Of a stretch of DNA of 64,000 bases, positions 3,756 to 42,218 are shown piece by piece. A program made the translations under genes and the position numbers. The stretch comes from a virus (taxonomy: Duplodnaviria; Caudoviricetes), in the IMG/VR virus record IMGVR_UViG_3300037634_002636, positions 29,081 through 93,080 of that record, one strand, 5' to 3'. Under the pieces are notes generated by a model. That model was not told the DNA's origin. It made no database searches and saw only the letters and a list, made by a program, of their open reading frames with translations. Each line of letters begins with the position of its first letter. The stretch's first letter is position 1.

Positions 3756-3759
3756 TAAT

Positions 3760-3800: not shown

Positions 3801-3809
3801 ACAAAGACA

Positions 3810-22988: not shown

Positions 22989-25900
22989 ACCTTTCTATCA
23001 AACCGTATCGTTCTAATTCATATCCCATAGATAAAAATGGTATATCTTTTCTCATTGCATCTGGAGAAGTTGCTTCTATTAAACTATTTAAATGTGTAAT
23101 TACAGCAAATGGATTTTTAAGAGTTCTAGCAAGTTCAAAAGGGTCTAACCCTTGAAGTGCATCCTTTCTTAAATAAACCAATCTTTGGAATATTGCATCC
23201 TCATCATCTCCATCCATACCAGATAACGCAAATCCCATAAGGAAATATACTAAAAATTTAGAATGTATCCCTATAATATCATGTTTATCTCTTTCATTTA
23301 AATTACCCCATTTATAATTAGTGTATTGTCCGCCGAATAAACTACCAATTGTAGTTTTTAATAACAACTTAGCTCTACCTTCATGTTCCCAAGTTTTCCA
23401 ATCCATAACATCCATATCAACCATCTCACCATCAATTTCTACTTCTTGTTTAATTCTATTGCCATTTTCATCTGTAAATTCCTGAAATGCACCTAAATGT
23501 ACATCATCTTTTCTAGACTCCCATTCTTGAATTAATAATGCAGGTAAATATTTTTTAAATTGCACTGCCCACACACCTACTGAAGTACTCTCTAATAACA
23601 TTCTTTCATGTGATCTATAAGCACCATGTACATCAGTAGATGTTTTTAACATTCTAATTATTTCATCTTCTGTTAACTCATCAATTATAGTTTTTTTACC
23701 ACTAGGTTCAATCCTTACTCCCCTTATATTTCTTTTTCCATTTTTAACTTTCATAAAAGTACCATCGTCATTATAATTGTCCCAAATAGAAGACTTATCT
23801 GGCATCTTTATTCTTCTCATTTGTGCAGCTAAAAATAATGCATGCCCCCATTCTTCATGGATAGCATGAAAAAAGAATAATTTATCATAACTAAGCCCCT
23901 TATTCTTTAAAAACATCATATCTGAATTATCTACAGCATAATCATAGTTATCTGGTAAATATTTAAAACGTCTTAATAAATTATGTAGTTTATTTTCAGA
24001 TGGTTTATCTGTAAATGAATTTTTAATCTGATCTGCAAAATATCCTGCAACTATTTTAGAGCCCCATATAAGATCACTTGTTGTTAAATCAATAGCACTA
24101 GGATGATAACCGGCACGCTTAGCAATACTTCCTTGAAGACCTTTCATAACAGTAAACATAGTAATAAGTAATCCGTTTACTGTACCAGCAATAACTTTAA
24201 AGAATAAAGCTTTACCCGTAGTTAAATGTTTCATTGCCATCATTATTTTAAATAAACTAATATTAAAACTTCGTCTATTAGTTAAAGTAGCTGGTTTAGT
24301 TTTATCAAAAAATGGATTTACTATAGAGAATTGTTTAGAAGACCAATGATCTCTTCTACCCGCTGCTCTTTCTTCCATAACAGAACTAATTATAAAATTC
24401 TCCATAAAGTTTTCATAATTCTTCCACCCTTTATCATCATCCCCTTTAACCCTTTTCATTGTATTGTAAAAACTTTTTAAACCATCTCCTAAAGCTACTA
24501 CAAAATCCATTTCTTGTTTACGTATAAGATTACCAACAAAACTATAATGCATGTTTTCTAAGTTAAAAGAATGGAGCTCATCTGCTATAATACCTGAAGA
24601 CCCTATATATCTAACAGGAATATGGGCATTTATAGAATCTGTTTGTCCATAGTAATTTTCTTCAAGAAATAATGAAAAAGTCTTTGCGGCAAAATTATTA
24701 AGCACTCTTCCGGTACCTTTCCATCTTCTTGTAATAAAATTTTCATCATCATACCTTTCATAAGCTTCTCCCGTTTCCATAGGAAGCCTAGGCATAAAGT
24801 TTTTGTGTAATTTACCGTCTACAACCGCATTATCTACATCATGCATCCCAATATGTTTAGAATAAGGAACTCCACTTTCCATTTTTTTCTCCATAAGAGC
24901 ATTCCACTCTGTATTCCATGTAGTATGTAAATGTTCTAACAACTCATATTGAGCTTTAGTTATTTCTTCATTAGCTCTTTTCTTTTGGGCGTCTTCTAAG
25001 CTTATCATATATACCCCTGGAGTCTGTACACCATCCATTCTTTGTTCAAAAGCAAAACTAAAAGCATCCTTATACGAATACTTAGATAATTGACCAAAAG
25101 ATAAAGCACCTATGGCTTTAGCTCCAAGATTATCAGCCATATATTCAGATTTAACGGCTGCAAATAACTTTTGTGCCTTTTGTTTCTCATCTTCTATTCT
25201 CTTTTGATATTTATTAGTAGCTTTGAAGAATATTTTTGCAAATGCTTGTATTCTAGGACTTGCTATATTATATATTGAACTAGCCCAAGTTTTAAAATTA
25301 CCAAAATCTTTTTCAGAATTTAAAGATTCTTTGGAAATTTTAGTTAATTCTAGATATTCATTAGTTAATACTTGAAGTAATTCTTCGTCTTCATATATAT
25401 CAGAAGACATTCCTGGAGTCTTAATTTTATTTCTTAACACTTCTATATCTTTTTCTAACCCTTGCAGTTGCTCTTCCATAGGTAAATGATCATATTTAGA
25501 TAAAGCAGCGCTATTTCTAATCTTGGTTGTAGTATAATTATCACCATTTAATAAATCTGCAGCCATCAATCTCTGATATACTTCAGGTTTTTCAGCTTGT
25601 AAATAATTACCAACAATAGTAAGATAATCTTTTAAATGTACTTCATAAGGAGCTTTAAATGGATTATTTCTTTCTAAATGCTGAACAATAACTTGTCTAA
25701 ATTTTGCATCTGGCATATGCTCTTTAACCATTATAGCCCTTAAAGCTAATTCTAACATAGCTTTACTTAATTTACTATTAGAAACATTATCTAAGGTACC
25801 ATTAGAATATCTCATCATTTCTGTAGTAGTTTTATCATTTAAAAAATACCCACCAGATTTCCAATCTACCATACTTAAAGTACCATCATCATGTTGAATC

Positions 25901-27678
25901 AAACCATCTATCTGTGTAGCTATACCTAATGAAGGGCTGTGAATCATTAATTCAGCTACCATTTTATCTGTAGATGTAACGCCTATTCTTCTTAATACTC
26001 CTTCTGCAACATTCCAAACCCATTGAAGTGATTGATCTGTAATTTCATCTTGATTAGACTTCTCTTTTTGTATCTCTGCTAATTCCTTTAAAATACGTTT
26101 ATCTTTATTTGCACTGTATTCCATTATTTTATGAACAGCGTGACCTCTAGCTGTAGCATTATTAGACTTCTTTTGATATTTATCAACTAACTCTGGATAA
26201 GTATATTCTATTTTATCTTGTGTTAAAGTATCAGTTTCTATATTCTTTTTATTTTTTATGAACTGCCTTTTTGCTGCATATTCAGAATTAACAGTATCAC
26301 TGTCTTGTCCCATAATATTGACTTTAACAAAGTGTGTTAACCTTTGAAATATGCCTGATCTACCTTCATATTCAGATTCATCTGTAGATAATCTTACTTT
26401 TTCTGTATCTCTTGCACTTTCTAAAGTTGATATAGTATCCCCTTCAACTATTTTTTCTACAGATGGTTTCTCATCAATACTTATATCATCTTCTATAACT
26501 TGATATTGAGCATTAGCATTAAAATTAGTTGGATCAGCATCAAAATTAAAAGCAACATCATTATCAACACGTCTGATTAAACCTGGAAAGTATTTTTCAT
26601 ATTGATCAATAATTCTAATATTCTTATCTAATACTTCTTTATTTATTTTAATTTCACCTGGTAAGGTATCTACAATACCATAATATCCTCGAACTTGTCC
26701 CGGTGTTACAATATTATCTTGTTGAAGACGTTTTAAGAAATTTCTTTTAGTTACTCTTCTAGGAGCATTAGTAAACTCTGATAATTCTGTTTCTAATCTA
26801 GCATCAGTTTCAACCATAACCATAGCTAAATTTCGTAATTTTAATCCTGACAGATCTTTAGGTGTAATAACTGCATCAGAATCATATAATTTTTTTATAA
26901 GATTTCCTATTTTTTTAAGTAATTCAAATATAGCTTGGCCTAATCCTTTACCTTTTTCATCGATCATACCTGCAGCATATTCTCCTATAGCTGTTACAAT
27001 AGCCTCTTTATAATATTCATTTCCCCCTAATTTAGGATATCTATCTTTTACTTTCTTTAATATAGCACGTCCTTCAGGACTATTATGTAACTCTTGCTTC
27101 AAAGATTTAAATAAAGCAGGGTTCTGTGTAAATATAGCTTCAACCCATGGGTGTGCAAACTCATGAAAAGCAGTATCTGCTCTCATATATGCTATATTTA
27201 TTATAGGAATATCAGCTACAAATTTACCAGCCCATTTCTTATCTTTTCTATTTATTACTTTAGCTTTAAATCCAAATACTCTTTCTAATCTTTCAACTAT
27301 TCTTAAAGCAGCTGGTTCACCTATTGTCTGAGCATCAGATGTTTTTTGATTCCACTTTATTTGTCTTTCTTCTAACTCTTTATCTTCTATGTCTTGTATT
27401 TTATCCTCCACATCCATTATACCACCAAAACGTAAAGAGTCTAGTCTAGGCTCACCGTTTAGGTCCAGATCCATTTCTCCTCGCTCATCCCCTTCATAAG
27501 TTGTAAAATCTAGCCAATCTCCAAACTTATCTATAAATTCATCAGAAAAAATTCTTTTATAAATCTCATCAGCTTTTCTTTCATCTTGAAACACATTTAA
27601 TAAGCCATTAAAAAGACGACTATTAGTTTTTTTCCCTTTATTAGGACCTCTACTTGGTATTATTAATCTACAAGCCAT
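22987..27678 (-). CDS. Giant virion cargo protein with zincin metallopeptidase and RecB/Cas4-like PD-(D/E)XK nuclease domains
   Basis: N-terminal FGDW...DLNGEP; DTAFHEFAHPW...EAIVTAIG (HExxH); RGHAVHKIME...AE...GIATQIDGL...VDWKSG; hydrophobic C-terminal helices. Confidence 0.75.
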   Translation of the reverse strand: MACRLIIPSRGPNKGKKTNSRLFNGLLNVFQDERKADEIYKRIFSDEFIDKFGDWLDFTTYEGDERGEMDLDLNGEPRLDSLRFGGIMDVEDKIQDIEDKELEERQIKWNQKTSDAQTIGEPAALRIVERLERVFGFKAKVINRKDKKWAGKFVADIPIINIAYMRADTAFHEFAHPWVEAIFTQNPALFKSLKQELHNSPEGRAILKKVKDRYPKLGGNEYYKEAIVTAIGEYAAGMIDEKGKGLGQAIFELLKKIGNLIKKLYDSDAVITPKDLSGLKLRNLAMVMVETDARLETELSEFTNAPRRVTKRNFLKRLQQDNIVTPGQVRGYYGIVDTLPGEIKINKEVLDKNIRIIDQYEKYFPGLIRRVDNDVAFNFDADPTNFNANAQYQVIEDDISIDEKPSVEKIVEGDTISTLESARDTEKVRLSTDESEYEGRSGIFQRLTHFVKVNIMGQDSDTVNSEYAAKRQFIKNKKNIETDTLTQDKIEYTYPELVDKYQKKSNNATARGHAVHKIMEYSANKDKRILKELAEIQKEKSNQDEITDQSLQWVWNVAEGVLRRIGVTSTDKMVAELMIHSPSLGIATQIDGLIQHDDGTLSMVDWKSGGYFLNDKTTTEMMRYSNGTLDNVSNSKLSKAMLELALRAIMVKEHMPDAKFRQVIVQHLERNNPFKAPYEVHLKDYLTIVGNYLQAEKPEVYQRLMAADLLNGDNYTTTKIRNSAALSKYDHLPMEEQLQGLEKDIEVLRNKIKTPGMSSDIYEDEELLQVLTNEYLELTKISKESLNSEKDFGNFKTWASSIYNIASPRIQAFAKIFFKATNKYQKRIEDEKQKAQKLFAAVKSEYMADNLGAKAIGALSFGQLSKYSYKDAFSFAFEQRMDGVQTPGVYMISLEDAQKKRANEEITKAQYELLEHLHTTWNTEWNALMEKKMESGVPYSKHIGMHDVDNAVVDGKLHKNFMPRLPMETGEAYERYDDENFITRRWKGTGRVLNNFAAKTFSLFLEENYYGQTDSINAHIPVRYIGSSGIIADELHSFNLENMHYSFVGNLIRKQEMDFVVALGDGLKSFYNTMKRVKGDDDKGWKNYENFMENFIISSVMEERAAGRRDHWSSKQFSIVNPFFDKTKPATLTNRRSFNISLFKIMMAMKHLTTGKALFFKVIAGTVNGLLITMFTVMKGLQGSIAKRAGYHPSAIDLTTSDLIWGSKIVAGYFADQIKNSFTDKPSENKLHNLLRRFKYLPDNYDYAVDNSDMMFLKNKGLSYDKLFFFHAIHEEWGHALFLAAQMRRIKMPDKSSIWDNYNDDGTFMKVKNGKRNIRGVRIEPSGKKTIIDELTEDEIIRMLKTSTDVHGAYRSHERMLLESTSVGVWAVQFKKYLPALLIQEWESRKDDVHLGAFQEFTDENGNRIKQEVEIDGEMVDMDVMDWKTWEHEGRAKLLLKTTIGSLFGGQYTNYKWGNLNERDKHDIIGIHSKFLVYFLMGFALSGMDGDDEDAIFQRLVYLRKDALQGLDPFELARTLKNPFAVITHLNSLIEATSPDAMRKDIPFLSMGYELERYGLIER

Positions 27679-30600
27679 TAGTTACATTTATTTTCGCTGG
27701 CAACATGTGCTGCATATCTTTTAGCTGCAATATTTTTAAAGTTAGATAGTGGTGTATGTTTAGCAAGTGATACTTTCCATTTAATACTATCTTCTGTTTC
27801 TACCTTTTCAATACCAGTTACAATTGCCTGTACAGCATTAATTCTTAATCTATCATCATGAGTTCTTAATAACATTTTATCTCCCTCTTTTAAACCTTTG
27901 ACTTCTGAGAATAATTCTATAGATTCTGTTGTAATATCATTTACAGGTCTCACTAAAGTATTTTTCTTAAAATGATCATTAATTGAATAAGGTTCTGATA
28001 AATATGCTTCTTTAACACTATATAAACTAGAAGTAGCTGATCCCTTTGCTATTGTTTGATAATATGCATTACCTCCTGTACCATCCTTTTTTACATCAGA
28101 ATGTACTAAAACATAAACTTGACCATAGTTAGGGTTAGATATAAATCTAGGCGGCGAAGGTAATAAATTTTGATCAATTTTCAAATCATAAAATACAGTT
28201 TCTCCAGTTGTTAAATCTTTTCTTCTAGTTCCAAATATAGAATTATTCTCGGAAACAACTGCTTGACTTATTTTTTTACTACTTAAAGATGCAATTTGAT
28301 TAATATTACTTAAAGCATACTGAACCATAAAAGACTCTTTACTATTTTCTAGTCTAGTACTAATTCCTGTTTTTGTATTTACTTCACGTTTAACTAATTT
28401 AAATAATAAATCAGATCTTTTCTTATCGTATCCAATAGAACCCTTTTCTCTAGCTCCATATAGTTCTGGACGCATTAACATAGTTATATTACTAGCAGCA
28501 AAAAGCATTCCTTCTTTAGCTATTGTATATAATAATAAAGACTCTTGTAATTTAGGATTTAATCTACTAAAGTCAGAATAAACTTGGACTAATTCTGGTT
28601 GTAATATTCCTTTAGAATTTCCAACTATATATTTAATACCCCGTCTATCTGTTTTAACAGATATTCTATTTATAAAAGAGTTTGATGCTATTTCTGATTT
28701 AAGATGTGCTATCTCTTCTGCTACTCTATGCGATAAGGCTTCAGTACCTGACGCAATTGTTTCTATATCTCCTCTTTTTATAATAATTGGATCTATAGCT
28801 GTTGTGTCAACTAATGACGACGCTAAATATCTAATAAACTCTTCTCTTATTATTTTATATTTCTCAGTAGCTGTTGTATTATCTTCTGATTTAGAAGTTA
28901 AACCTAGTATATCAGATATCTCTTCTGCATATTTCACAAGTCCTGGATTATTCACATCTAAAATGTGCCCTGACATACTATATAAATGGTCTGAAGTTTC
29001 TCTTGCTGCTTTTAAATGTGGTAATGCTGTTTCTATACCGGATATCTCTAAAGATAAATTAGAATCCTCATTAAACATTTCTGCCATATCTCTTGTCAGA
29101 TCTGTTAATTCCTCATGATTAGAAGGTAATTTCCTAAGTATATTTAAAGTAGTTGCAACTTTAGTTAAATCTGAACCAAACTTATTAAGACCTCTTTTTT
29201 TACCCCCAGGACTTAATAATTCCAACACTTTTAATTGGAATAATAAATCTGGAACAGTGGTACCTAATTGTTTATCTAAGCTATTTTTAAATTTAGGATT
29301 AGTTCTTTTTATACCTTTTGATAGTTTTTGACTAATAAGTTTAATCTCAGCATATTGGCTCTCTAACGCTTTTGCAGTATAATTACTTTCCGCCAACTTT
29401 TTATTAATAAGCTCTCTAACTTGTGTTGCGCCTTTACTAAAATCTTTTGGATTCAATCTAGCCGCCTCTTTAACTGCCGGTTGTAGTAAAATCCTTACAG
29501 CTGTATGTAATGGAACCCCTGTACCTATCATAACATAGAACATAGAAGCAGTAGCCCGATTCATATTAATAATATTTAATATCTGCTCTTTAGCATTATC
29601 AATTGCTGCATTAATTATAGAGTCCATAGTAGCCCAAATAGTATTAGTGCTAAACTTATTTTTTGGGTGTTTTTCATATCTAGATAACTCACTATATGTT
29701 ACACCATCTATTTCAAAACTAAATGGAATTATATCTATAGTACCATCTTTTTGTTGTGTTCTACTATGAATTAAATAAGAAGGGCCTCCATCTCTAGCTG
29801 CCTCCATCATATATACCAAAGCTTTCATTGCATTAGCTCCTGCACCTGTTAATATAGATCCTTGTTGATTACTTTGATGCATATATAACTCATCTAAAGG
29901 ATTAGATAAATCTCTAGTTTCGTATAATTGTGAATGGTCTTCTTTTAAAACTAATCCCAAATCTTTAGATATTATATCAAATACAGAATTATTAATATCT
30001 ACACCGTTAACTACATCACCTTTAAGATTATTCATAGTAATAGGAGATAAAATAGAGTTTCTATTTTCAGGTTTTTTTAGAACCTTTAAATAAATATCCA
30101 ACATTTTATTTTTTAAAGCTGCTTGTTGAACTGTTTCAAGTATTTTAAGTAATTTTTTATGCGCTTTTTTTGTTTCTTTAAAAATTTCTATATCCTCTGA
30201 AACTATTGATTGTCCAATTTTTGTATTAAGTTCTTTAAGCTTATTTTTAATCTCATTCATATCAATAATTAAATTAGCTAAGAACTTATCATCGGACGGA
30301 ATTACATCACCAGTTGTAAAGTATAGTTTATCATTTCTAGATACTAATCCTTTATCAGAATTTGTATATAATTTATTACCAGATTTTGATGTATCTGTAG
30401 CATGAGCTTTTCGTATTACAAACAAAGAATCTACATCAAAATCTGACCCATGTATAGTCTGCAGCTCTTTAGGTGCAATAACAACATTAGTATCTAAACT
30501 ATCATAAAATCCAACTACTTTAAGTGCTACAGAGGAATGTAGTTCAGTAGAAGGTATACGGAATCCCATCATATATTCGTTTTGATATATCTCATCTCCT

Positions 30601-33600
30601 ATTTTAAATTTCTTTGAATGTACTCTAGGCATTAGCACCTCTGCATATGGTCTATCAGCTGTAATATGCTTTAAAGGTCTTTCTATAATACCACTGTCTT
30701 TTATATATGCATCAAGAGTCACCCCTGCTTCTGCGGCTAGATCTATAAGATCATCTTGTAATAACACTTCTCCAAGTTGTGTTTCATATACACTAGCTCC
30801 ATATCCAGTTTGCAGAACTAGTTTAGAGCCTGGAAATTTAATTTTTATAGTGGCTTTAGATAGCGCAGAAGATAATACAGAAAATACCTTATTAACTACT
30901 CCTGGGAAGTTTATAGTAACCGCTGGATTACCATTAACATCTTTTGCATGTAAAATTTCTGCTTCTTTATGTGCAGACTCTTGTATTTTAGTTCCTTGTA
31001 AAATCTTCTTTCTTATTTTTGCTTCTACAGATTTTCTACGTGCAGGCTTTAGATTTGAAAAATCTCTTATTTGACCATTACTCATTAACCCTATACCATG
31101 AAAAAATTCTTTAGTTCCTAAATCTATTATTTGCGCCATAGTTTCATAATACTCCTGAGCTTCTACAGAATTTAAACCATTTGTATTAATCATATAAGCT
31201 AACTGACTGGGATTACTAACTAAAGTATTAGCATCATGTACTGGATCTAACTGAAGTCTAAGATATTTGTTATTTAATGTCTTTATAGAATTAGGATTAA
31301 TTTTTGGAGCTAATTTAAAGCCTTTCTTACCAGGTCTCCATGGAGAGTATCCATGCTTTGATAAATCTTCTTTATTAGGAGCGCCAATCTTAACAGCTGA
31401 TTTCATTACTAGTTCATCTACTTCAGAACCTTCCATAACATCTCTTAATGCTTTTAATCCTTTATGCTTACTAACTAAATCGTTTGTTAAAACTACAGTA
31501 GAATATTTTAAAGCTATTTGATCGCCATTCTCATCAATACCATAATATACAGGCTTCATAACTGTTCCTGCTTTCAATCCTCCTCCAAAACCTTTACGTA
31601 AATCCTTTAATCTACTAGGTAATACAAACCCTTGGCCATCTGCTAATTCAAATGCTTTATCTAATCCTAAGTCTTTTAAATCTTTTAATAAAGCTGTTCT
31701 TTCTTTTGGTGCTAAGAAATCAAATGCTGTTCCTTGAGGATCTTCCATTACAGCAACTCTAAATGTGTTTTTCATACCTATAATAGGATTAACAAAACCT
31801 CTATATCCAGGCGCAAAAGCAATAGACATACGCTTCACTACGTCATAAGAGTCTTTAAATTTAGCAGTGTCTCCTAATACTATTTGATTTAAGAAAAAAG
31901 AATTAATAGCGTAATTAGCAACAAATACAGAAGCTAAATCTTTATTATTTTCTTGTAATTCTTTTTCTGCTTTTTTACCTTTAGGTTTCTTTAAATATTT
32001 TTTATCTCTTAAATTAGCTCTAGCACTAGCAAGATCAGAAGATATTCTATCAAATAAACCTTCAGTTTGCATTTTAGTAACTAATTCGTCTGTTCTTTTA
32101 TTAAATTCTTCAAGAATTCGAGATACCTTTTGTGCTTTATTTAAATTTGAATTATTTAATATATTAGAAAATACAAGAGATTTTTTTATTGGTTTCTTAT
32201 GGTACTGCTCAACGATTGCTTTAACAGCTTCTACAATCTGTTGGTCAGTTAATAACTGTACTTGAGCTGCTTTAGGAGATGATTTGTCTGAAACAGTAGT
32301 TAATTGTTGTGTATAATATAAACTATCTTTAGATTCTTTTAAACCATTAACAAACCAATAATTAAAATTTCTATCTAACCACCCTTTTTCAGATTCTTGA
32401 GAATACGTTACCGGGGTGTATTTACGTTTTTTATCTATAATACCATCCCAATCATGTATCTCTCTTAGTTCACTTTTACCGTTGGCAAATATATTAAATT
32501 GATAAATGTTATCATACGATTTTGTATTTTTCTGTAGATGTAAAGGTGTACTGTCTTTTCTATTACTTATAATACCACTCAAAATATCTATACCAAAAGA
32601 ACTATTATGATAAGCATATATGGTTTTACCCTCAACGTTTCTAATGCTATGTGCTTTAGTTCCTTCATGCTCTAATTTTAACATGTCTCCTAAAGCTTCA
32701 ACAAATGTTTTTTCATCATCTAATAAATCACTGATAGTAAATAAAGGATAAACTTCTCTACCTTTATCATTAACTATTTTTTTAGCGCTTTGATCTCTTT
32801 TACCTACTTTAGGAACCTCTTTAAGAAATCCTTCTAATTTCATAATAACATTATCTAACTCTTTAGGACTGAGGATAACTTTCTCTGCAGGATATCCTAT
32901 TAAGTTCATAAAGTTTTTAGCTATTTCCCTTTTATCTGCTTCTTTGATGGCTTTTCCTTTATTTTGAATCTTAGCTAATATCTTAGGAGCATTATTTTGT
33001 ATTTTAACTATGTGTTCTTCAATAAAATTTTGAATATCAGAACTTATTATAGATCTTGTTCCAAATTCTTTATGTTTATAATATCTTAATGATTTTTTTG
33101 ATTGTTTAGTGTCAGAGTCAAATTTATACTCATAATCACCCATCATGAAGTTTTCCTCTCTTAAACTTGCAGTATTAACAAATATATTCTTTAAATCTCT
33201 GTCGGCTTTATTCTTACGATTTAAGGCTATTAATAGCTCTGCAGGTACTCCTATACCTTTTGAGTTCAACTCTTCATATATACGATAATAATAATCTTCT
33301 GAAGCCTCCCCTTTCTTTCTTGCTATAGCAGAATGAATATCTTGTTGTTTTATGTCATAAAGAATATCACTAGCTTCAACCTTAATATCTTCTGAATAAA
33401 CAAATAAATCATTATTGACAAAATGCATGTTTTTAGGCATAGGAAGTATACTTGTTTTATTTTCAGCATTTTCTAATTTCTTTTGAAGTCTTTTTCTTTT
33501 TGCTTTAATTGCCTTAGTTTTACCTTTTAATTCAGATAATTCTTTTCGTAATCTTATAGCATCTGCTCTCCCTTCGCCAACAATAACTTGATTCATAAAC

Positions 33601-36600
33601 GCTGTGTCTATTAAATCAACTATAGCTTCTTTTACAGCCCATCCAGCACTGCCCTTTTTATGGCCAAGTGAGTTAGACTTAGCTACTATATTCCTTCTAA
33701 ATTCTAAATAATTAATTGAATCTGTATCACTTAACATTTGTAGTATCTTATAGTAAGCATGTGGAATAGTCAATCTTTTTGTTTTTCCATCTGCTGTTTG
33801 ATAAGTTATACCTGTTAAAAACTCTATAACAGATTCTGTAAGGTTTTTATTATGATCTTTTGAATTTGCATTTTCAATCACATCCATTAAGTTAACAGTA
33901 TCTAAATATGTGTCTTCTTCTAATTCATATCCTTGTGTAAATTGATCTCTTTGATATACATCAGCAAACATATATTTAGCTAATCTTTTATTACCTAATG
34001 CTTTTACTCCTTTATAAGCATTCATTTGATGTATATTTAAATTATCAAGTCCTATTTTCTCAAATGCTTCTATTTGCTCTGGTACAAGATCGTCAATTAA
34101 ATACTCTAAAGCCTCGTCTCTAGACATTGGTGTCTCTGATATAGTACCACTTTCATGATCTACTTCAGATATAATATAAGTACCGTCTAAGGTTACTGAA
34201 TCATACTGTCCTAGTAATGAAGACATTCCTATAACAAATCTAGATCTAGCTTCTCTATATATTTCAATAGAACCCCAATTCTTTTCAATATCTTGGTAAT
34301 TCATATTAGTATCTATAGGATCTCCTACCATTCTTTTACCAGAGAAATAACCAGAATCTATATTATCAAATAATTTTTCTATATTATCTGCATTCTTATT
34401 AATGAATCCTAAAAATTTAGCTATCTTTTTAAATATACGTCTTATTACAGCTGGGACACTATTCTCATTTCGTCTAAACTTCATAAACTCTCGTGCTAAT
34501 CTTTCCTCAACTTCAGAGTTAGTCATAAAGGCAGGTAAATTATATTTAACACGAGCTGTGCTAAACAAAATTTCTCTTTCTTTTTTAGTTAAATAATATG
34601 ATACAATTTTATGAAATACCTCATGCCTAATTACGTTATCTAATATCCCATCTCTTTCCTCTAATAAAAATATTCTTTGATTTATAAACTTTCCTAATAC
34701 ATCACTACTTTCAGATAATTCTAACATTCTTAATGAGTCTAAAAACACTACATTACCTGGTATTAAATCGCCATGCTTATTAAATAGATCAGGTAATAAA
34801 CTCTTAAGCAACCATTTAGCGTCGTCTTTAGTTATATAATCACCTTTTAATCCTTCTTCAGTACCTTCATCTCTAAATTCATCGCCTGTAAGAGAATCAG
34901 TTCCTCCTAAATTACCTCTTCGTTTCTTTTTCTTTTTGGGCTTTTTTACTTTTATTGGTGCGGGTTTATTATCTTTCTTTACTGCTTCTTCTTCTTTCTC
35001 TTTCATAGTCTCAGACTTATCTAAAACTATTTTAGTACTTTCAATACTTTCTAGTTGAGATGTTAAATATTTTTCAGCAGATTTATGATTATCTTCCGCG
35101 CTTCTAAATTTAGATGACACACCTGAATAATCAATATCTCTAAAATCACTCATCTTTATAGGAACATATAATACTTGATTATAGCCCTTACTATCTTGAT
35201 TACTAAATACTGCGTTTAATATACTGCTAGTTATAGGCCCTCTAGCTGTAACTCTCTTTCCTGGATATGAAAGTATACTCTTAGAAACTACTCTACGTAC
35301 TTTTTTACCTTTAATCATTGTACGCTTTTCTTCTCTAAATATACTATTAGCTCTAGCTAATCTATCCATCGCTAATTGAGCTCTACCAGTCCCTCTAGTT
35401 TGCTTTGAAATACTCCCTGAAGGATTAGTTTCTACTATATCCCACTTAAGTTCTCTTACAGTATCTCTTAATTGTATTAGTTTGTCTACTAGTTTAGGCT
35501 TTCCTAAACTTAAAGCTATCCTTTTTACATTATTATCAGTTCCTTTAATAAAGTCTACAAACGTTTTAGTCCCTAACTTTAAATTACCTTCAGTTAACTT
35601 TTCAATTGCATAAATAACACCTGTGAACTCACTTAAAGGCTTAAAGTAATTTTTAACATCATCTTTAATGTTTGCAGAAAGTCTTCTAGGAGTTAATGCT
35701 ATATATTGAGTTTTAGATTTTGACCCAACAGACTCTACGCCTTTTATAACTAAGTAAGGCATACCAGACTTAAGATTAAATCCATTTGGTATTTGTCCTT
35801 TTCTAGCTAACTCTTGAATGTCTTTTTTCTTAAATACTTTAACTCGTGATTCCTTTATATTACGCTGTTGTTCAGGAGATATAGATTGTTTCTGATCATA
35901 AAATTGTTCTATGAATTGTTTTAATAACCTTTTAATTAACCCTTTATTTTCTTTTTGAAAGTTTTCTCCTCTAGGACTGTTCTCATGTAACTCTGCTCTA
36001 GATTTATATTTATAAGCTAAGCGCCTTGCTCCGCCAGGAGGTATAATAATACCTTTAATAAGATTACTTTTTGCTGCAAATCCGGTATTATCAACTAATA
36101 AACTTTTATCTCCAGCTTCTGCTAACTCTGTAAATTGTATTGAAGGTTGATGATTTAATTGATATTTTAAAGCTTCTTTTTCTATTTTATTTAAAAAGCC
36201 CATTTCATCAATCTCTGCTTCATTCCCTATTACAGCTACACGTCTAAAGACTGGTTTATTTTGATGTCTAAAAATTGTTTGGCCTCCCTCCACAGGAGTT
36301 CTTGCGGGTTGTACTACTATAATACCCTCGATAAGATTACCATCTCTTCCTACAGTTTGAGTTTTTACAAATAATACAGGTTGATTATCTTGTATAGGAA
36401 GTACAATAGTTTCATCAGCTAAAACCGTAGAACTTAATCCATCATATTCTGGATAATATAAAACATGTTTATTCTTTACATCTATTTCCTTATTAAATTG
36501 AATATTATCTCCTCCTTCAGTATAAGCTGTAGAGTTGTTATCACTATCAAAAGCGTCTTCTGAAAAGTTATCATCTTCTGTTATATCTTCTCCTTCAGTG

Positions 36601-39600
36601 ATCCAACTATCCTTTTTATCTTCTTCATTAGCTTGCTCTTCTACTATTTCTTCCTCTTCTTGAGGAGCTGCGTCTTCAGAGTGTTCATCTCTTTCTTCTT
36701 CTTCTATAGTAGGAGCGCCTCTATGTATTTCCTCCATTTGATCTCCATCATCACTGTCGTCATCTTCTTCTATTTCTTCACTAAGTAAGTCCTCAGGATC
36801 TTTTAAGTCTTCAAATTTCTTAAGCAGTTCAGTATTATCTTTTGTTTCTTCCTCGAACTGAATTCTTCTAGCCTCCAATTCCGATGACAATGTATCTTGT
36901 ACAACGCTCATTTCAGAATCAAGGGTATTTTTTAAATTAAGATTAGCAACAACAATTAAATCTTGAGCTCTAGAAGCTGCTGTATACAACGCTTTGTTGT
37001 ATTCTAAAGCTTGCATATTTCCTCTCTCTATATCCATATAAACTTCGTTGATAGTCTCTCCTTGAGCGTCTATAAAAGATAATACTTCTACATTCTGTAT
37101 TTGATTAGTTTTTAAGAAAGCATTATATCCTTCTACTTTTTCTGGAGTTGTTATAATAACTCTTCTAATATCTGAAGAAACAGGGTTTTGTAATTTTAAA
37201 AGTAATCTTTCTTTAAAATTACCACTTACTCCATATACTCCTAAAGCACCATCTGACCAGGGATTAGGTTGGTTAAGTTTAACAATAATCTCTTCATTAG
37301 ATATATCGTCTCTTCGTCTTCTAAATATATCTTGAAATGTAGATATAGCAGGGTTATCACTTCTATATATATTAGTAACAGGAGTTATATAAGTATCCAT
37401 CCTACTGAATGTATCAAAAGAAGATAATGGAGTAGTGGTTTCTGTGGTTATCTGAGCCTCATCTCCTAACATAATCACCTTTAAAAGAGATTCTCCTGCC
37501 TCGGCTCTCTTTGTATTTATGTCTAATACTTTATCGTGTAATGCTGTGTATTGTATATCACTTAAACTAGGAGCTTCATCAATAACTAATACCTTTAAGT
37601 CACTTGCATCATCATCGCTTATATCTATAAAATCAGCGAAAGTATTTACTCCTTCTAAACCTAATGCTTCGTTTATAGTTTTAGATGAACTATCATTATG
37701 TCCTATAGCAAATACTTTATTATTAACTATACCAGCAGTATGTAGCGCCCAGGGTAAAACTATTTTACTTTTTCCTGTTCCTGCTGCTCCTTGTAAAAAG
37801 GATGATATATCTCCTAAATTAAAATCTTCTGAATTAAAAGAAACGTTTCTATTTAAAAATACTGATAACTCTCTAATAGCATTTATCTGTTGTTTAGTTG
37901 GTATAAAACTTTCTGCTTTAGTTCTAACTAAAACTTCTTCATTAATCAATTGAGCTTGAGTATCGAAATTAGATGTTAATAATCTAAATAATTTAACTGC
38001 GCTTTGGCTTTGTATATGATGCCCTAATAAGGATAATAGAACTTCACTACTTACTTTTCTATTAGATCTATCTTCTTCAGCTATATCTTCTATTAATCTA
38101 CTTGTATCTAAATGATCAACATATTTCCATAAAGCAGATTCTCTATTATTTAAATCTAAATCTGCGTCTAAAGTAGAGATATTATGTAATAAACCAGTTA
38201 TTCCATTTTCTGGGTTGGCTTTATAATCTGTTGCAACCATCTCTTGCTCTTCTGTTGATATTTCTTTTTCAACTATATCTGCAACAACTTGTGCTTGTTC
38301 TCTGTGTAAGGTTTTTAAACCTTCTAATATCTGATTTTTTAATTCTGGTTGATTATTTAACTCTAATTTAATAAGTTCTACAGCTACTAATGCAACAGCC
38401 ATTTTATCAGTCATTCCCATTATAACACCTTCAGCTGCTGTAGCGCCTTCTTCTAACTTAATCAATGCGTTTCTAAGGATATTAACATTATCGCCTAGTA
38501 AAGTTAAAAATTGTGCTCCTATATTCTTAAATAAACTTTTATCATCAATTGTAAAATTAGGTTTTAATCCTAAAGATTGTAATAAATTATTAAATGTACG
38601 CTCTTCAAAAGCAGTTTGCTCAGCGGTTCTGTCTGCAGCATTCTCTTTAATAGTAGTAAGTAAACCTTTCATAGTAACTTCAGCAGCTTGTAGCTGATCA
38701 ACTATATTTTGCATATAATCTTTTTTACCTTCAGGCGCTTCTACTAATCTACGTTTAAATATTTCTAACCTACCTTTAATATTTTGATAAATCCTTTCTG
38801 CAGTTGCTACGTCTGCGTATTCTGGAAGGTGTTCTAACTGACTAGCAAGATAATCCATACCTTCCATAGCCTCAAGAGCAGCTTCTTCTAATATTTTATC
38901 ATTACTAATTTTATCGAATAATTCATCTTTAAATTCAAAAGAAGAAGAATCTTTTTCTAGCCTGGCTACAAATTTTTCAGACATATTAGCTGTGTCATTT
39001 AGCGAAGCAACTTCAGCTTTTATTTCTTCAGCTTGTATTGTTAGTTCTTTAAGAGTTTTATCTTTTAAACCTCTGTCAACTAAAGAATTTAATACCGCTT
39101 TTTCTTCTCTACTTAACTCGCCAACTTCTTCTTCAAGAGTTCTTAGTCTCTTTATATCTTCTTGTTCCGCAGGAGTTAAAGGTTCATGCGTTTCTTTTTG
39201 TAGAGTTTGATTATTAAATGTCTCTTTAATATCTTGCTGCATCTTTTCAATATCAGCAAGTTTTTGTTCTAACTCTTGTTTAGTTGTTACTACCTCATCA
39301 GCTAACCTGGCTAGATCCTCTAAAGTTTGTGGATCCATCTTAGCATTATTTTCTAATATACTAGGTAAAATCCTATCCAATCCTTTAACTCCGTATTTTT
39401 CTATATGTTGCATTATCTCCCCTATACCATGCATTGCAACTGCGCGTTTTACTTTATTATTAAACTGGCCTTTCTTTAAAGCTGTATATTCAAAAGCTTG
39501 TTCATATAATATTTTATTCTTTTCTAGTATTAAATCATTAAGAGTTGTCCTATCATCTTGAGTCATCTCCTCTTTCTTTAATATCTCAGTAATTTCTTTA

Positions 39601-42218
39601 TTAATATCTAGATATTGTCGAAGCTCATTCCTACCCCATAAAGCGCCGTGTCCTGTTCTTTTATTTTCTATAAAAGTTTTCTCCTCAGTAGCTATTTCTT
39701 CATTAGCTTTCTTAGCTTGTTCTATTGACTCTTGATTTTCTAAAATCTCTAAATCGTAAGGAGTAACTTCTAGTCCTCTCTCCTTCATCTTATTACGAAG
39801 AGACTCTTTTTGTTCTGATGAAGGGGCTGCTTCTTTTAATATCTCTGATAACTCTTTCTTTCTTTCAGCAGATGTTTCTGGATTATCGTATTCTGCTTGT
39901 TCTTCAGAAGTTAATGCGGTAGTATATAAATCTAAAGACTCATCTTTACCTCTTCTATACGCTTCTTGTTTCTCTGTTAGCTCCTCATTTCTTTTCTCTT
40001 TATTAACAATGTCCATCGCATTATTAAATACATGCTTCTTGTCATCTTGAGTATAGCCTCGTATACCTCTATTTTTACCTATATCATACTCTAATCCAAA
40101 AGCTGAAATAGCTAAGGGAGATTTATCATCAAATACATCATCATATATTTGCTTAGCTTGTTGGATCTCATTTATAGTATTGATAGCATCTTCTTTTGAG
40201 AATCCATCTAATCCTCCTTTTCTACCCATACGGTATATAGCATCATATAAATCACCCTCTTTACCTTCATCAAAATATTTATATAAAAGATCTTTCTTCT
40301 GCTCTAATAAATTTTCAGCATTTAATGCATCACCATTCTCACCTAATAAATTTATAGCATTATTTAATTCTACGAAAGTTCTAGCACCTCCCCAATTAGA
40401 TAAGGTTCTACCTCCTCCTGTTAACATAGTAGCCATATCTCTACCAGATTGAACAGCATGTTTAAACGCTAAACTTTCATACATATCAGGATTAGACCTT
40501 CTTAACCCACTCATATTCATACCATAATCTACTGCATCAACTGCAGCATCTTTTGTACTATTCCATACATTATTTAACCAAGAGCCTGAACGTTCTTGAT
40601 TATATCCTCCTAAATAATCTTGGGCCCATCTATATTGAAGACCCTCTTCCATACCTTCTAGCTCTCTAGATATACCTACACCTGTAGCAAAAGTACCAGC
40701 TTTTACTAATCCTCTAGACCAGAATCTAGAACCAACTTGTCTAGCAGCTAAATTTCTAAAAGTACTACCTGTAAAAGCTTTAGATAGTCCAGGCATCTTC
40801 ATAAATGTTAAAGCAAACTGTATTATATCAGATCCTCCAAGAGCCATATTCTTTTCAAATAACTCATCTAAACCATCTCCTGCTAATATAGCAATCTTAT
40901 TCTTTTCATCTTCAGTTAATTCTCTATCTTCTCCTTTCTTTTTTAAGTCTTGTTTCCATGCTTGTTCTAACATATCAACTTTTTGCCAATATGCATCACC
41001 AGCTTCCATTTTAGTTTCAAGATTTCTACTATACCAGTTACCTGCAGCAATAGTTCCAAATTGTAATAAGGCCGAGATTGATCTTATATAAGGATTCTTA
41101 ATTCCGTTTAAAAGTTTATTACTTATTTGTGTTTCTATAGTCTGAACTAGAGCAGGTCCAAGAATAGCAGCTACTTGACCTTCAAATGTAGAAATAGTAC
41201 CAGCTAAATCTTGAGCAGCTTTATACTCAAAATACTCATCTCCCATAAACTTATCACTAAGTCCAAACATAGGACTAATTATAGGGATAGAACTAAGAGC
41301 TGTTGCTCCCATATTCTTTTCTACGGCACTCCTAACGCTATAATCTTCTGCTACATCTCCTCCACCGTACAAAGGTAATGGAAGTCCTTGTTGGTACCAT
41401 TTATCTCCTACCCCTGTTAGTCCAGAAAACATCCTTCCTCCTATACTTCCCCATCCTCCTTCAGTTATCTCTTCTTCTCTATCAGCTATTTTACCTTTTA
41501 CTGTTTCTAAGTCTTCTAGAAGAGAAGCATATGTATCAGATTTATTACTCAAAGAACGTTCAAGTTTACTTCTATTTAATAAATTAGCGTCTTCCGCTCT
41601 TTGTACCGCAGCTGTATAATCCTCAGCAGATAAATTTGTATGCATACCCGTTAACACACCATCTAATAATTGATCTACTAGGTCTTCATGTTGTCCTGAA
41701 CCTATTGTATTGGTTTCTATATTTGCTAAGATTTGAGAATGAGCGTCAGCAGATATTAAACCTTCTGCATAAAAATCATCTGCTCTTTTTTTAGCAGTTT
41801 CATACTCTGCTAGCTTCATTCTTATTTTCGCTACTTCATATTCGTATCCACCTTTGTCCTGCTCACGTATATCGTTAAACAAAGTATTCCATGAGTTTTT
41901 CATGTTACCTTGATATATAGTTTTGTACATTTCAGGACTAAACTCAGGAGTCATATAACCTTTGTTATACATACTCTGTTGTTTATAAGACTCATCTGCT
42001 GTTATCCTTTGCTCAAACCCAGCTGATCTAGCACTAGCAGATAGCACTGTTCCACCACGTTGTGGAGAACTGTCCATTAATTTAAAGGACTCTCGTGGGC
42101 TTAACCCTGAAGATCCTTGATCTAAATAGTCTAATGCTGAATTAGTTGGTGTAGATTGTGGAGATAGATTGTTAGCGTCCAAACCTCCCCTCTGATATTT
42201 CTTACGGTTTTTATTCAT
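27678..42218 (-). CDS. Giant (4846 aa) virion RNA polymerase protein with SF1 helicase and zincin domains
   Basis: RNAP: LADGQGF, SAVKIG, RIPSTELHS, GSDFDVDSLF (DxDxD at 30429-30443, like phi14:2 gp66 DFDID). Helicase: GAAGTGKS, IDEA, LGDEAQ, YRS, AQGET, YTAASRA. Zincin: RHEVFH. Confidence 0.88.
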   Translation of the reverse strand: MNKNRKKYQRGGLDANNLSPQSTPTNSALDYLDQGSSGLSPRESFKLMDSSPQRGGTVLSASARSAGFEQRITADESYKQQSMYNKGYMTPEFSPEMYKTIYQGNMKNSWNTLFNDIREQDKGGYEYEVAKIRMKLAEYETAKKRADDFYAEGLISADAHSQILANIETNTIGSGQHEDLVDQLLDGVLTGMHTNLSAEDYTAAVQRAEDANLLNRSKLERSLSNKSDTYASLLEDLETVKGKIADREEEITEGGWGSIGGRMFSGLTGVGDKWYQQGLPLPLYGGGDVAEDYSVRSAVEKNMGATALSSIPIISPMFGLSDKFMGDEYFEYKAAQDLAGTISTFEGQVAAILGPALVQTIETQISNKLLNGIKNPYIRSISALLQFGTIAAGNWYSRNLETKMEAGDAYWQKVDMLEQAWKQDLKKKGEDRELTEDEKNKIAILAGDGLDELFEKNMALGGSDIIQFALTFMKMPGLSKAFTGSTFRNLAARQVGSRFWSRGLVKAGTFATGVGISRELEGMEEGLQYRWAQDYLGGYNQERSGSWLNNVWNSTKDAAVDAVDYGMNMSGLRRSNPDMYESLAFKHAVQSGRDMATMLTGGGRTLSNWGGARTFVELNNAINLLGENGDALNAENLLEQKKDLLYKYFDEGKEGDLYDAIYRMGRKGGLDGFSKEDAINTINEIQQAKQIYDDVFDDKSPLAISAFGLEYDIGKNRGIRGYTQDDKKHVFNNAMDIVNKEKRNEELTEKQEAYRRGKDESLDLYTTALTSEEQAEYDNPETSAERKKELSEILKEAAPSSEQKESLRNKMKERGLEVTPYDLEILENQESIEQAKKANEEIATEEKTFIENKRTGHGALWGRNELRQYLDINKEITEILKKEEMTQDDRTTLNDLILEKNKILYEQAFEYTALKKGQFNNKVKRAVAMHGIGEIMQHIEKYGVKGLDRILPSILENNAKMDPQTLEDLARLADEVVTTKQELEQKLADIEKMQQDIKETFNNQTLQKETHEPLTPAEQEDIKRLRTLEEEVGELSREEKAVLNSLVDRGLKDKTLKELTIQAEEIKAEVASLNDTANMSEKFVARLEKDSSSFEFKDELFDKISNDKILEEAALEAMEGMDYLASQLEHLPEYADVATAERIYQNIKGRLEIFKRRLVEAPEGKKDYMQNIVDQLQAAEVTMKGLLTTIKENAADRTAEQTAFEERTFNNLLQSLGLKPNFTIDDKSLFKNIGAQFLTLLGDNVNILRNALIKLEEGATAAEGVIMGMTDKMAVALVAVELIKLELNNQPELKNQILEGLKTLHREQAQVVADIVEKEISTEEQEMVATDYKANPENGITGLLHNISTLDADLDLNNRESALWKYVDHLDTSRLIEDIAEEDRSNRKVSSEVLLSLLGHHIQSQSAVKLFRLLTSNFDTQAQLINEEVLVRTKAESFIPTKQQINAIRELSVFLNRNVSFNSEDFNLGDISSFLQGAAGTGKSKIVLPWALHTAGIVNNKVFAIGHNDSSSKTINEALGLEGVNTFADFIDISDDDASDLKVLVIDEAPSLSDIQYTALHDKVLDINTKRAEAGESLLKVIMLGDEAQITTETTTPLSSFDTFSRMDTYITPVTNIYRSDNPAISTFQDIFRRRRDDISNEEIIVKLNQPNPWSDGALGVYGVSGNFKERLLLKLQNPVSSDIRRVIITTPEKVEGYNAFLKTNQIQNVEVLSFIDAQGETINEVYMDIERGNMQALEYNKALYTAASRAQDLIVVANLNLKNTLDSEMSVVQDTLSSELEARRIQFEEETKDNTELLKKFEDLKDPEDLLSEEIEEDDDSDDGDQMEEIHRGAPTIEEEERDEHSEDAAPQEEEEIVEEQANEEDKKDSWITEGEDITEDDNFSEDAFDSDNNSTAYTEGGDNIQFNKEIDVKNKHVLYYPEYDGLSSTVLADETIVLPIQDNQPVLFVKTQTVGRDGNLIEGIIVVQPARTPVEGGQTIFRHQNKPVFRRVAVIGNEAEIDEMGFLNKIEKEALKYQLNHQPSIQFTELAEAGDKSLLVDNTGFAAKSNLIKGIIIPPGGARRLAYKYKSRAELHENSPRGENFQKENKGLIKRLLKQFIEQFYDQKQSISPEQQRNIKESRVKVFKKKDIQELARKGQIPNGFNLKSGMPYLVIKGVESVGSKSKTQYIALTPRRLSANIKDDVKNYFKPLSEFTGVIYAIEKLTEGNLKLGTKTFVDFIKGTDNNVKRIALSLGKPKLVDKLIQLRDTVRELKWDIVETNPSGSISKQTRGTGRAQLAMDRLARANSIFREEKRTMIKGKKVRRVVSKSILSYPGKRVTARGPITSSILNAVFSNQDSKGYNQVLYVPIKMSDFRDIDYSGVSSKFRSAEDNHKSAEKYLTSQLESIESTKIVLDKSETMKEKEEEAVKKDNKPAPIKVKKPKKKKKRRGNLGGTDSLTGDEFRDEGTEEGLKGDYITKDDAKWLLKSLLPDLFNKHGDLIPGNVVFLDSLRMLELSESSDVLGKFINQRIFLLEERDGILDNVIRHEVFHKIVSYYLTKKEREILFSTARVKYNLPAFMTNSEVEERLAREFMKFRRNENSVPAVIRRIFKKIAKFLGFINKNADNIEKLFDNIDSGYFSGKRMVGDPIDTNMNYQDIEKNWGSIEIYREARSRFVIGMSSLLGQYDSVTLDGTYIISEVDHESGTISETPMSRDEALEYLIDDLVPEQIEAFEKIGLDNLNIHQMNAYKGVKALGNKRLAKYMFADVYQRDQFTQGYELEEDTYLDTVNLMDVIENANSKDHNKNLTESVIEFLTGITYQTADGKTKRLTIPHAYYKILQMLSDTDSINYLEFRRNIVAKSNSLGHKKGSAGWAVKEAIVDLIDTAFMNQVIVGEGRADAIRLRKELSELKGKTKAIKAKRKRLQKKLENAENKTSILPMPKNMHFVNNDLFVYSEDIKVEASDILYDIKQQDIHSAIARKKGEASEDYYYRIYEELNSKGIGVPAELLIALNRKNKADRDLKNIFVNTASLREENFMMGDYEYKFDSDTKQSKKSLRYYKHKEFGTRSIISSDIQNFIEEHIVKIQNNAPKILAKIQNKGKAIKEADKREIAKNFMNLIGYPAEKVILSPKELDNVIMKLEGFLKEVPKVGKRDQSAKKIVNDKGREVYPLFTISDLLDDEKTFVEALGDMLKLEHEGTKAHSIRNVEGKTIYAYHNSSFGIDILSGIISNRKDSTPLHLQKNTKSYDNIYQFNIFANGKSELREIHDWDGIIDKKRKYTPVTYSQESEKGWLDRNFNYWFVNGLKESKDSLYYTQQLTTVSDKSSPKAAQVQLLTDQQIVEAVKAIVEQYHKKPIKKSLVFSNILNNSNLNKAQKVSRILEEFNKRTDELVTKMQTEGLFDRISSDLASARANLRDKKYLKKPKGKKAEKELQENNKDLASVFVANYAINSFFLNQIVLGDTAKFKDSYDVVKRMSIAFAPGYRGFVNPIIGMKNTFRVAVMEDPQGTAFDFLAPKERTALLKDLKDLGLDKAFELADGQGFVLPSRLKDLRKGFGGGLKAGTVMKPVYYGIDENGDQIALKYSTVVLTNDLVSKHKGLKALRDVMEGSEVDELVMKSAVKIGAPNKEDLSKHGYSPWRPGKKGFKLAPKINPNSIKTLNNKYLRLQLDPVHDANTLVSNPSQLAYMINTNGLNSVEAQEYYETMAQIIDLGTKEFFHGIGLMSNGQIRDFSNLKPARRKSVEAKIRKKILQGTKIQESAHKEAEILHAKDVNGNPAVTINFPGVVNKVFSVLSSALSKATIKIKFPGSKLVLQTGYGASVYETQLGEVLLQDDLIDLAAEAGVTLDAYIKDSGIIERPLKHITADRPYAEVLMPRVHSKKFKIGDEIYQNEYMMGFRIPSTELHSSVALKVVGFYDSLDTNVVIAPKELQTIHGSDFDVDSLFVIRKAHATDTSKSGNKLYTNSDKGLVSRNDKLYFTTGDVIPSDDKFLANLIIDMNEIKNKLKELNTKIGQSIVSEDIEIFKETKKAHKKLLKILETVQQAALKNKMLDIYLKVLKKPENRNSILSPITMNNLKGDVVNGVDINNSVFDIISKDLGLVLKEDHSQLYETRDLSNPLDELYMHQSNQQGSILTGAGANAMKALVYMMEAARDGGPSYLIHSRTQQKDGTIDIIPFSFEIDGVTYSELSRYEKHPKNKFSTNTIWATMDSIINAAIDNAKEQILNIINMNRATASMFYVMIGTGVPLHTAVRILLQPAVKEAARLNPKDFSKGATQVRELINKKLAESNYTAKALESQYAEIKLISQKLSKGIKRTNPKFKNSLDKQLGTTVPDLLFQLKVLELLSPGGKKRGLNKFGSDLTKVATTLNILRKLPSNHEELTDLTRDMAEMFNEDSNLSLEISGIETALPHLKAARETSDHLYSMSGHILDVNNPGLVKYAEEISDILGLTSKSEDNTTATEKYKIIREEFIRYLASSLVDTTAIDPIIIKRGDIETIASGTEALSHRVAEEIAHLKSEIASNSFINRISVKTDRRGIKYIVGNSKGILQPELVQVYSDFSRLNPKLQESLLLYTIAKEGMLFAASNITMLMRPELYGAREKGSIGYDKKRSDLLFKLVKREVNTKTGISTRLENSKESFMVQYALSNINQIASLSSKKISQAVVSENNSIFGTRRKDLTTGETVFYDLKIDQNLLPSPPRFISNPNYGQVYVLVHSDVKKDGTGGNAYYQTIAKGSATSSLYSVKEAYLSEPYSINDHFKKNTLVRPVNDITTESIELFSEVKGLKEGDKMLLRTHDDRLRINAVQAIVTGIEKVETEDSIKWKVSLAKHTPLSNFKNIAAKRYAAHVASENKCN

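Follow-up and report, generated by a model that had tools for sequence, protein, structure and literature searches.

A crAss-type virion RNA polymerase shares one predicted 4,846-residue chain with an SF1B-type helicase and a zincin-like domain in a distant crAss-like phage

The window analysed here is the whole 64,000-nucleotide stretch that forms the final 64 kb of IMG/VR virus record IMGVR_UViG_3300037634_002636, a 93,080-bp record rated complete by CheckV. It holds a giant open reading frame (ORF), P0001, whose product combines an N-terminal module, a helicase domain of superfamily 1 (SF1), an acidic linker, a basic middle region, a zincin-like domain and a crAss-type RNA polymerase (Table 1). 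The start of the next gene on the same strand overlaps the stop codon of the giant gene by one base. The first-pass annotation had described a single chain of 4,846 amino acids (aa) at this place, and the ORF is indeed intact on the minus strand; every motif quoted there was found at the position given for it. A frame of 4,846 codons in DNA of 30% G+C cannot be a product of chance. With zero in-frame stops under table 11, no special genetic code was needed to read it.

Among 5.8 billion proteins searched, 24 homologues of 3,796-6,970 aa were found, all from independent metagenome contigs. Homologues at 75% to ~30% identity (4,650-6,970 aa) are colinear with the giant ORF from end to end, and in more distant ones the helicase, zincin and polymerase segments are still present in unchanged order. 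Because independent contigs are colinear, an artefact of assembly or reading frame was ruled out. Nor are the motifs chance occurrences, since the helicase passes Pfam thresholds, the polymerase matches PDB entry 6VR4 with an expect value (E) of 1.1e-27, and the HExxH motif is invariant in a 10-sequence alignment. Taken whole, the protein matched no family in PHROGs and nothing in PDB by phmmer, and the gene likewise found nothing in the phage collection by megablast.

Table 1. Features of the giant gene and of other genes in the window (nt, nucleotide positions in the window; K+R, lysine plus arginine; D+E, aspartate plus glutamate)
Feature	Residues (aa)	Position (nt)	Strand	Remarks
Giant ORF P0001, transcription/cargo-block fusion protein (probable)	1-4846	27678..42218	-	4,846 aa; single uninterrupted frame, table 11
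N-terminal module	1-1388	38055..42218	-	Largely helical and charged; better-conserved core at aa ~300-700 (conservation profile)
SF1B-type helicase domain (predicted)	1389-1800	36819..38054	-	Pfam, fold model, conserved motifs; GAAGTGKS aa 1477 (nt 37767-37790), IDEA aa 1546, LGDEAQ aa 1584, YRS aa 1618, AQGET aa 1718, YTAASRA aa 1745 (nt 36966-36986)
Acidic linker	1801-1900	36519..36818	-	45% D+E; poor conservation
Basic middle region	1901-2440	34899..36518	-	17-23% K+R over most of its length; KKPKKKKKRRG patch at end
Zincin-like metallopeptidase domain (predicted)	2441-2720	34059..34898	-	HEVFH aa 2532 (nt 34611-34625); candidate third ligand Glu2572
crAss-type virion RNA polymerase core	3350-4300	29319..32171	-	ADGQG (first barrel) aa 3526, RIPS aa 3887, DFDVD aa 3926 (nt 30429-30443)
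C-terminal region of polymerase part	4301-4846	27681..29318	-	Conserved within family
Downstream partner gene	1,563 aa in all	22987..27678	-	Second HExxH, FHEFAHPW, aa 172; PD-(D/E)XK-like region aa ~486-708
DnaB		11765-12688	+	E 2e-30

By sequence homology, the C-terminal part of the chain is a two-barrel RNA polymerase related to gp66 of phage phi14:2. A profile built from six polymerase sequences (A2) matched a single entry in PDB, 6VR4, which is phi14:2 gp66. The match spans gp66 residues 811-1547 and 1611-1679, across both double-psi beta-barrel regions; the first-barrel motif is aligned, and GSDFDVD of the giant chain stands opposite GSDFDID of gp66. In the polymerase alignment A4, HGSDFDVD is invariant. 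The virion RNA polymerase originally read from ADGQG and DFDVD was thereby substantiated, with the metal-binding DFDxD site included in the match.

In the helicase domain, we recognised Walker A (GAAGTGKS), Walker B (VIDEA) and motifs III (GDEAQ), IV (YRS), V (AQGET) and VI (YTAASRA). The segment at aa 1472-1592 passed the Pfam cut-offs for AAA_30 (30.5 bits, cut-off 27) and AAA_19 (28.4 bits, cut-off 25.1), and in a six-frame search of the genome PF13604 passed inside the giant gene at 33.6 bits. The C-terminal UvrD_C_2 match fell below its cut-off (15.5 vs 27.4 bits), so that only the N-terminal half passes Pfam. Conservation of the two Walker motifs and of motifs III, IV, V and VI extends over 23 homologues, the most divergent at 22% identity, and shows the ATPase to be under selection. 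Employing a five-sequence profile against PDB, we obtained weak matches to Dda-like proteins (E 5e-4) and Pif1 (E 1.4e-3). A tblastn search of the phage collection with the helicase region, in the versions from the window and from L004, found nothing, and a scan of IMG/VR with the same region found no confirmed relative.

The AlphaFold2 model of the helicase (m7d5338a1de0b) reached a predicted local distance difference test score (pLDDT) of 74-89 in the first RecA-like domain, and the accessory 2B/SH3-like region was poorly modelled. With this model, the best rows of Foldseek were SF1 helicases, RecD, RecD2 and Dda leading (E ~5e-9). The top match in VIA-align was T4 Dda (Z 17.6, root-mean-square deviation 4.0, 277 residues aligned), and the next matches, at Z 15.8-17.1, included Dda-like chains, Dda (16.8), Pif1 (16.4) and RecD2 (15.8); UvrD and helicases of superfamily 2 (SF2) scored Z 14-15.6. 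Judged from motifs and model, the helicase is of the SF1B (Dda/RecD2/Pif1) type, with two RecA-like domains and intact catalytic motifs. It shares with T4 Dda a compact size, with a core of ~340 residues, and differs from Dda, RecD2 and Pif1 in sitting inside a 4,846-aa chain and in being very divergent in sequence (best PDB profile matches E 5e-4 to 1e-3). The SF1 helicase of the first-pass annotation is therefore upheld by Pfam, by the model and by motif conservation; its label 'RecD-like' can stand if taken broadly for SF1B, T4 Dda being the closest structure to the model.

The 'long acidic linker' that had been noted after the helicase is present and poorly conserved. An Atlas search with the basic middle region (aa 1900-2440) that follows it gave no usable match. 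Beyond this region lies the domain that had been called a zincin from HEVFH. His2532, Glu2533, His2536 and Glu2572 are invariant in alignment A5 (10 sequences, 25-80% identity to the window sequence). In the model of this domain, the core has a pLDDT of 77-92, with HExxH in helix 88-103 and the downstream Glu in helix 128-142 (model numbering). The top 12 VIA rows are nearly all zincin or zincin-derived folds, with Z within the chance range: PPEP-2 (7.0), anthrax lethal factor (6.8), PprI (5.5), ArdC (5.1) and SPRTN-type proteins (4.8). The zincin profile found no match among PDB sequences. It did match the HEAFH domains of two gut crAss phage proteins, cr4_1 gp26 (E 1.3e-16) and cr118_1 gp14 (E 1.2e-12), and it gave no significant match to the upstream protein of Rudgehvirus, for which the depositor's note reads ZnMc_tr. 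From the conserved residues and the model, we accept a zincin-like domain in the giant chain, with a predicted role as a peptidase; by its sequence it appears to correspond to the zincin upstream of the polymerase in gut crAss phages.

To place the chain among its relatives, the polymerase profile was run against a library of 1.84 billion proteins, where it matched 2,118 clusters (50% identity) at E <= 1e-3. The helicase and zincin counts that follow cover the best 150 of the 2,118 cluster representatives, the helicase being counted with profile A1. A helicase of the giant-gene type lies upstream of the polymerase in the same chain in 73 representatives (median length 5,048 aa), and only a Walker A motif was found at the equivalent place in 10 further ones. 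The zincin type of the giant chain is present in 92.

Ten reference crAss-like genomes were compared with PF13604. The polymerase or giant gene of cr118_1 (gp14, NC_055872.1, L024:4382-19222, 4,946 aa) contains a PF13604 helicase at 96.9 bits, in the order zincin (aa 1734), polymerase (DFDID aa 3209) and helicase (Walker A aa 4471). This Suoliviridae protein, like the giant chain, is thus a single giant chain with an HEAFH zincin upstream of the polymerase, an SF1 helicase in the same chain and a downstream partner, of 1,667 aa. In contrast to the giant chain, in which the helicase is N-terminal, its helicase is C-terminal; it is also a far more canonical AAA_30 and matches the giant-gene helicase profile only remotely (E 3.6e-6). 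Given that the cr118_1 helicase follows the polymerase instead of preceding it and bears only a remote likeness to the giant-gene helicase, the association between helicase and polymerase probably arose at least twice. A second protein of the Suoliviridae, cr4_1 gp26, is also a single giant chain with an HEAFH zincin before the polymerase and a downstream partner (1,803 aa, annotated as exonuclease; gp27, NC_055893.1), but no helicase was found in it.

Surveying polymerase genes for helicase fusions, as the first-pass annotation had proposed, gave a positive answer for the clusters and for cr118_1 and a negative one for the other nine reference genomes. The novelty claimed for the fusion was overstated, given that the helicase join is routine in databases and occurs in RefSeq (cr118_1); the same holds for the polyprotein with its zincin, as a polymerase fused to its neighbouring proteins in a 'huge polyprotein' and a zincin in the block have already been published. 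The join is real and conserved, and it is a divergent version of the published design of crAss virion polymerase polyproteins and polyvalent cargo proteins.

The surroundings of the giant gene agree with such a design. Upstream of it, on the same strand, is a crAss Ring-1 tail protein (PF24228, E 1.3e-57), which matched 112 phage records, largely crAss-like and Flavobacterium phages, all at <60% identity; the best listed rows are proteins of Suoliviridae and Flavobacterium phages at ~30% identity. In relatives, the crAss muzzle protein (PF25731) is found upstream of the giant gene. The giant gene ends the tail/cargo block, as g067-g066-g065 do in phi14:2. Both loci have a homologous polymerase core, with the DFDxD and first-barrel motifs aligned, at the end of the structural/tail block and with large partner proteins on both sides. 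They differ in that phi14:2 encodes three separate proteins, with no helicase by PF13604 in them or in its genome; gp66 has no zincin, whereas in the giant chain one lies ~650 residues before the polymerase core; and the family profile showed no detectable similarity between the N-terminal module and gp67. By its gene content, the phage is a distant crAss-like lineage. Contigs of relatives come from marine and other environmental samples, and the phage with the giant gene is probably marine.

The replication block, on the opposite strand, encodes PolA, an SF2 helicase, a Toprim primase and DnaB. The giant-gene helicase was ruled out as the replicative helicase of the phage, because the genome has DnaB and a primase of its own. 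A related proposal is that it has nothing to do with early events, being either a recombination or repair enzyme released by the zincin or a decaying relic. It is the sole match to PF13604 in the 93-kb genome; the replication block has no SF1 helicase, whereas that of some other crAss-like phages has one. To the SF1 helicases that Rudgehvirus and Fpv1 have in their replication blocks, however, it is related only remotely (~22-23% identity), and the block of this phage is already furnished with DnaB, primase, PolA and SF2 helicase. In at least 73 clusters it holds the same place in the cargo block, and since 23 homologues retain every catalytic motif it is no relic. We therefore regard this proposal as very improbable.

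The gene downstream of the giant gene adds a second HExxH domain to the transcription block, which the first-pass annotation had missed. This motif (FHEFAHPW) is conserved in relatives, and its position near the N-terminus resembles that of HEIMH in phi14:2 gp65, for which a zincin-like protease domain has been reported (10.1101/2020.03.07.982082). Residues 1046-1360 of gp65 weakly match the family profile at the C-terminus of the downstream protein (domain E 2e-4, whole-sequence E 6). On these sequence similarities, the downstream gene is likely the equivalent of gp65. Its profile found nothing in PDB. The nuclease-like region scored 20 bits with PDDEXK_1 (PF12705), under the cut-off of 22, and matched the exonuclease family phrog_298 at E 2e-4. 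In about half of the close homologues of the giant chain, the downstream protein is fused to it in frame, which gives chains of 6,100-6,400 aa; in more distant relatives the fused chains are up to 7,277 aa long.

Comparison of these arrangements indicates that the block is built of three modules, namely the N-terminal module with the helicase (A), the zincin with the polymerase (B) and the second zincin with the nuclease-like region (C). Eighteen of the 150 polymerase-cluster representatives have no helicase and carry the zincin inside their first 350 residues, and at locus L015 a separate 2,585-aa AAA_30 helicase protein abuts a zincin-polymerase gene. Because helicase-less chains start at the zincin and the split form exists at L015, the sequence comparison points to fixed seams at which evolution joins and splits the modules. 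At another locus, 3 kb without a called gene (L016:6888-10001) lies directly upstream of a zincin-polymerase gene, P0056, that starts at the zincin; this gap may hide a recoded or frameshifted gene for the helicase module.

The nuclease-like region raises another explanation for the helicase. Paired with the PD-(D/E)XK-like region encoded by the next gene, it would make an injected helicase-nuclease of the RecB/AddA/Dna2 kind that degrades host DNA or disarms host defences directed at the entering genome, a role proposed for polyvalent virion proteins. Such a pairing would suit the frequent in-frame fusion of the 1,563-aa downstream protein, and several of the fused homologues carry precomputed PF12705 matches. 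It would also suit the zincin region, which in a language-model look-up resembled LPD23 and LPD1, two domains of polyvalent virion proteins; polyvalent proteins have been read as early counter-defence effectors (PMC5512222). However, the match of the putative nuclease is under the Pfam cut-off, more than 3,000 residues separate it from the helicase, with the polymerase in between, and cr4_1 has a nuclease-bearing partner without a helicase, so that the two are not obligately linked. We consider a helicase-nuclease unlikely.

The likeness to polyvalent proteins extends to the N4 virion RNA polymerase. In both cases, as in the giant chain, a zincin-like hub stands beside a virion polymerase and nucleic-acid enzymes in a huge multidomain protein that enters with the DNA, as is predicted for the giant chain. 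In polyvalent proteins the zincin is a hub domain, and N4-type virion polymerases are always fused to a zincin (PMC5512222). Unlike the N4 enzyme, which is T7-like, the polymerase of the giant chain is of the two-barrel crAss type, and none of the Pfam polyvalent-protein families matched the giant chain at reportable E-values.

The helicase join seems to have gone undescribed in the literature we consulted. Yutin et al. (2021) described the transcription block as 'several large, multidomain proteins'; in their text and in that of another crAss paper, figures apart, 'helicase' is never used for this block. The word is also absent from the text, figures apart, of the 2023 review and the structural atlas, and the main text of Iyer et al. 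2017 (PMC5512222) uses neither SF1 nor RecD. We found no paper that discusses the helicase of the giant polymerase chain.

We think it fairly probable that the giant gene encodes a fused cargo protein of the transcription block of a divergent crAss-like phage, with helicase, zincin and polymerase in one chain. The products of phi14:2 g067-g066-g065 are virion proteins by mass spectrometry. In crAss001, the polymerase-associated proteins are capsid cargo which needs partial unfolding for its exit, and which is believed to go first and to contribute to the entry channel (Bayfield et al. 2023). From synteny and these characterised relatives, we infer that the giant protein is packaged in the virion. 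It would be made late, packed in the capsid as cargo and driven in a partly unfolded state down the tail, either before the DNA or together with it. In the host it would refold, and the polymerase would transcribe early genes; the zincin domain may activate the polymerase or cleave the chain into functional parts.

The first-pass annotation had also offered the idea that the helicase pulls the genome into the cell. As a DNA-entry motor, it would be anchored at the channel by the N-terminal module, the long helical part of the cargo block that it adjoins, and the early exit of cargo proteins at the forming channel would place it well for this. SF1B enzymes, however, travel along single strands of DNA and would have to start from a nick or a single-stranded end. 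In the N-terminal module, which matched nothing in Pfam or PHROGs, no membrane-spanning segments were found (the whole protein has one weak hydrophobic window), and most of the reference crAss-like phages checked enter without such a domain. An entry motor is quite improbable on this evidence.

For a packaged fusion protein, a role of the helicase in transcription is more attractive. Recombinant gp66, the one enzyme of this kind to have been characterised, gave no transcription from double-stranded M13 DNA and little from native phi14:2 DNA, whereas it was efficient on single-stranded M13 DNA and denatured phi14:2 DNA (10.1101/2020.03.07.982082). The preference for single-stranded or denatured templates over duplex that the first-pass annotation had cited for gp66 thus holds against the published assays. 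QDE-1, a eukaryotic relative of gp66, requires the helicase QDE-3 (10.1101/2020.03.07.982082). Because gp66 is poor on duplex DNA and QDE-1 needs QDE-3, a strand opener would be needed.

That the helicase supplies the polymerase with single-stranded template is a real possibility, which we put slightly below an even chance. SF1B motors run 5'-to-3' on one strand. Placed on the non-template strand, the helicase would move in the direction of the polymerase, opening the duplex ahead of it, and might clear bound host proteins from its path. A link to transcription is supported by cr118_1, in which an independent fusion has put a helicase after the polymerase. More tentatively, the SF1B helicase may be the missing strand-opening factor of crAss-type virion polymerases, which would be unable to use duplex DNA alone, attached to them at least twice independently to make a self-contained injected machine for unwinding and transcription; lineages without the fusion would use a separate strand-opening factor.

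Several points weigh against a role in transcription. The helicase and the polymerase are ~1,600 residues apart with a putative protease in between, and after cleavage they may be separated and act independently. PF13604 found no helicase in the giant or polymerase gene of nine of the ten reference genomes (phi14:2, Rudgehvirus, Fpv1, cr4_1, cr52_1, cr56_1, cr6_1, cr131_1 and cr271_1), and this type of polymerase therefore does not require a built-in one. The helicase model is moderate (mean pLDDT 59), SF1A and SF2 helicases are just 2-3 Z units behind, and the 5'-to-3' polarity is predicted from the model. For the zincin, the fold scores are middling (Z <= 7; Foldseek best E 0.17, probability 0.93), and no relevant Pfam peptidase family was found at E <= 10. 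The adjacent or fused nuclease-like region suggests a role in DNA processing instead.

Few known viruses are more abundant than crAss-like phages, whose first step of infection depends on a polymerase borne by the particle. A helicase with intact motifs joined to this polymerase in dozens of lineages, at two positions, is gene-fusion evidence for a working partnership, and the giant chain offers a clean test of how crAss-type polymerases get their template. If the strand-opening role is true, the chain would be to bacterial viruses what the QDE-1/QDE-3 pair is to eukaryotic RNA silencing. The modularity of the transcription block should also improve the annotation of giant genes. The public labels of such genes vary: cr118_1 gp14 is called 'exonuclease V', the cr52_1 protein 'nuclear pore complex protein-like' and the cr4_1 protein 'hypothetical'. 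Under table 11, cr4_1 gp26 (L009:4698-18173, 4,491 aa) has 38 in-frame stops, in keeping with the reassignment of stop codons that some gut crAss phages are known for.

A homologue of the zincin-polymerase module was also seen on a bacterial chromosome of 5.3 Mb (CP023777.1, GCA_002557795.1). The protein, P0048 (L014:10001-17491, 2,496 aa), has HEVAH at aa 78 and DFDID at aa 1480, and it matched the polymerase profile at E 1e-131. Its gene lies ~1.2 kb downstream of a tape-measure gene of a contractile injection system (PF19268, E 1e-115) and an AAA ATPase, and is flanked by ordinary chromosomal genes. P0048 may be the payload of an extracellular contractile injection system; we found no paper on a polymerase homologue of this type beside such a system.

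Finally, although no cultured phage is known to carry the helicase join of the giant gene, Fpv1 encodes a 4,401-aa 'structural protein' at the position of the giant gene (KU599877.1 34368-47573, L011:30461-40921) and an SF1 helicase elsewhere. The crAss Ring-1 protein is common to Fpv1 and many FPSV isolates, which are cultured phages of Flavobacterium psychrophilum, and these phages could serve as laboratory models for the giant-gene block.

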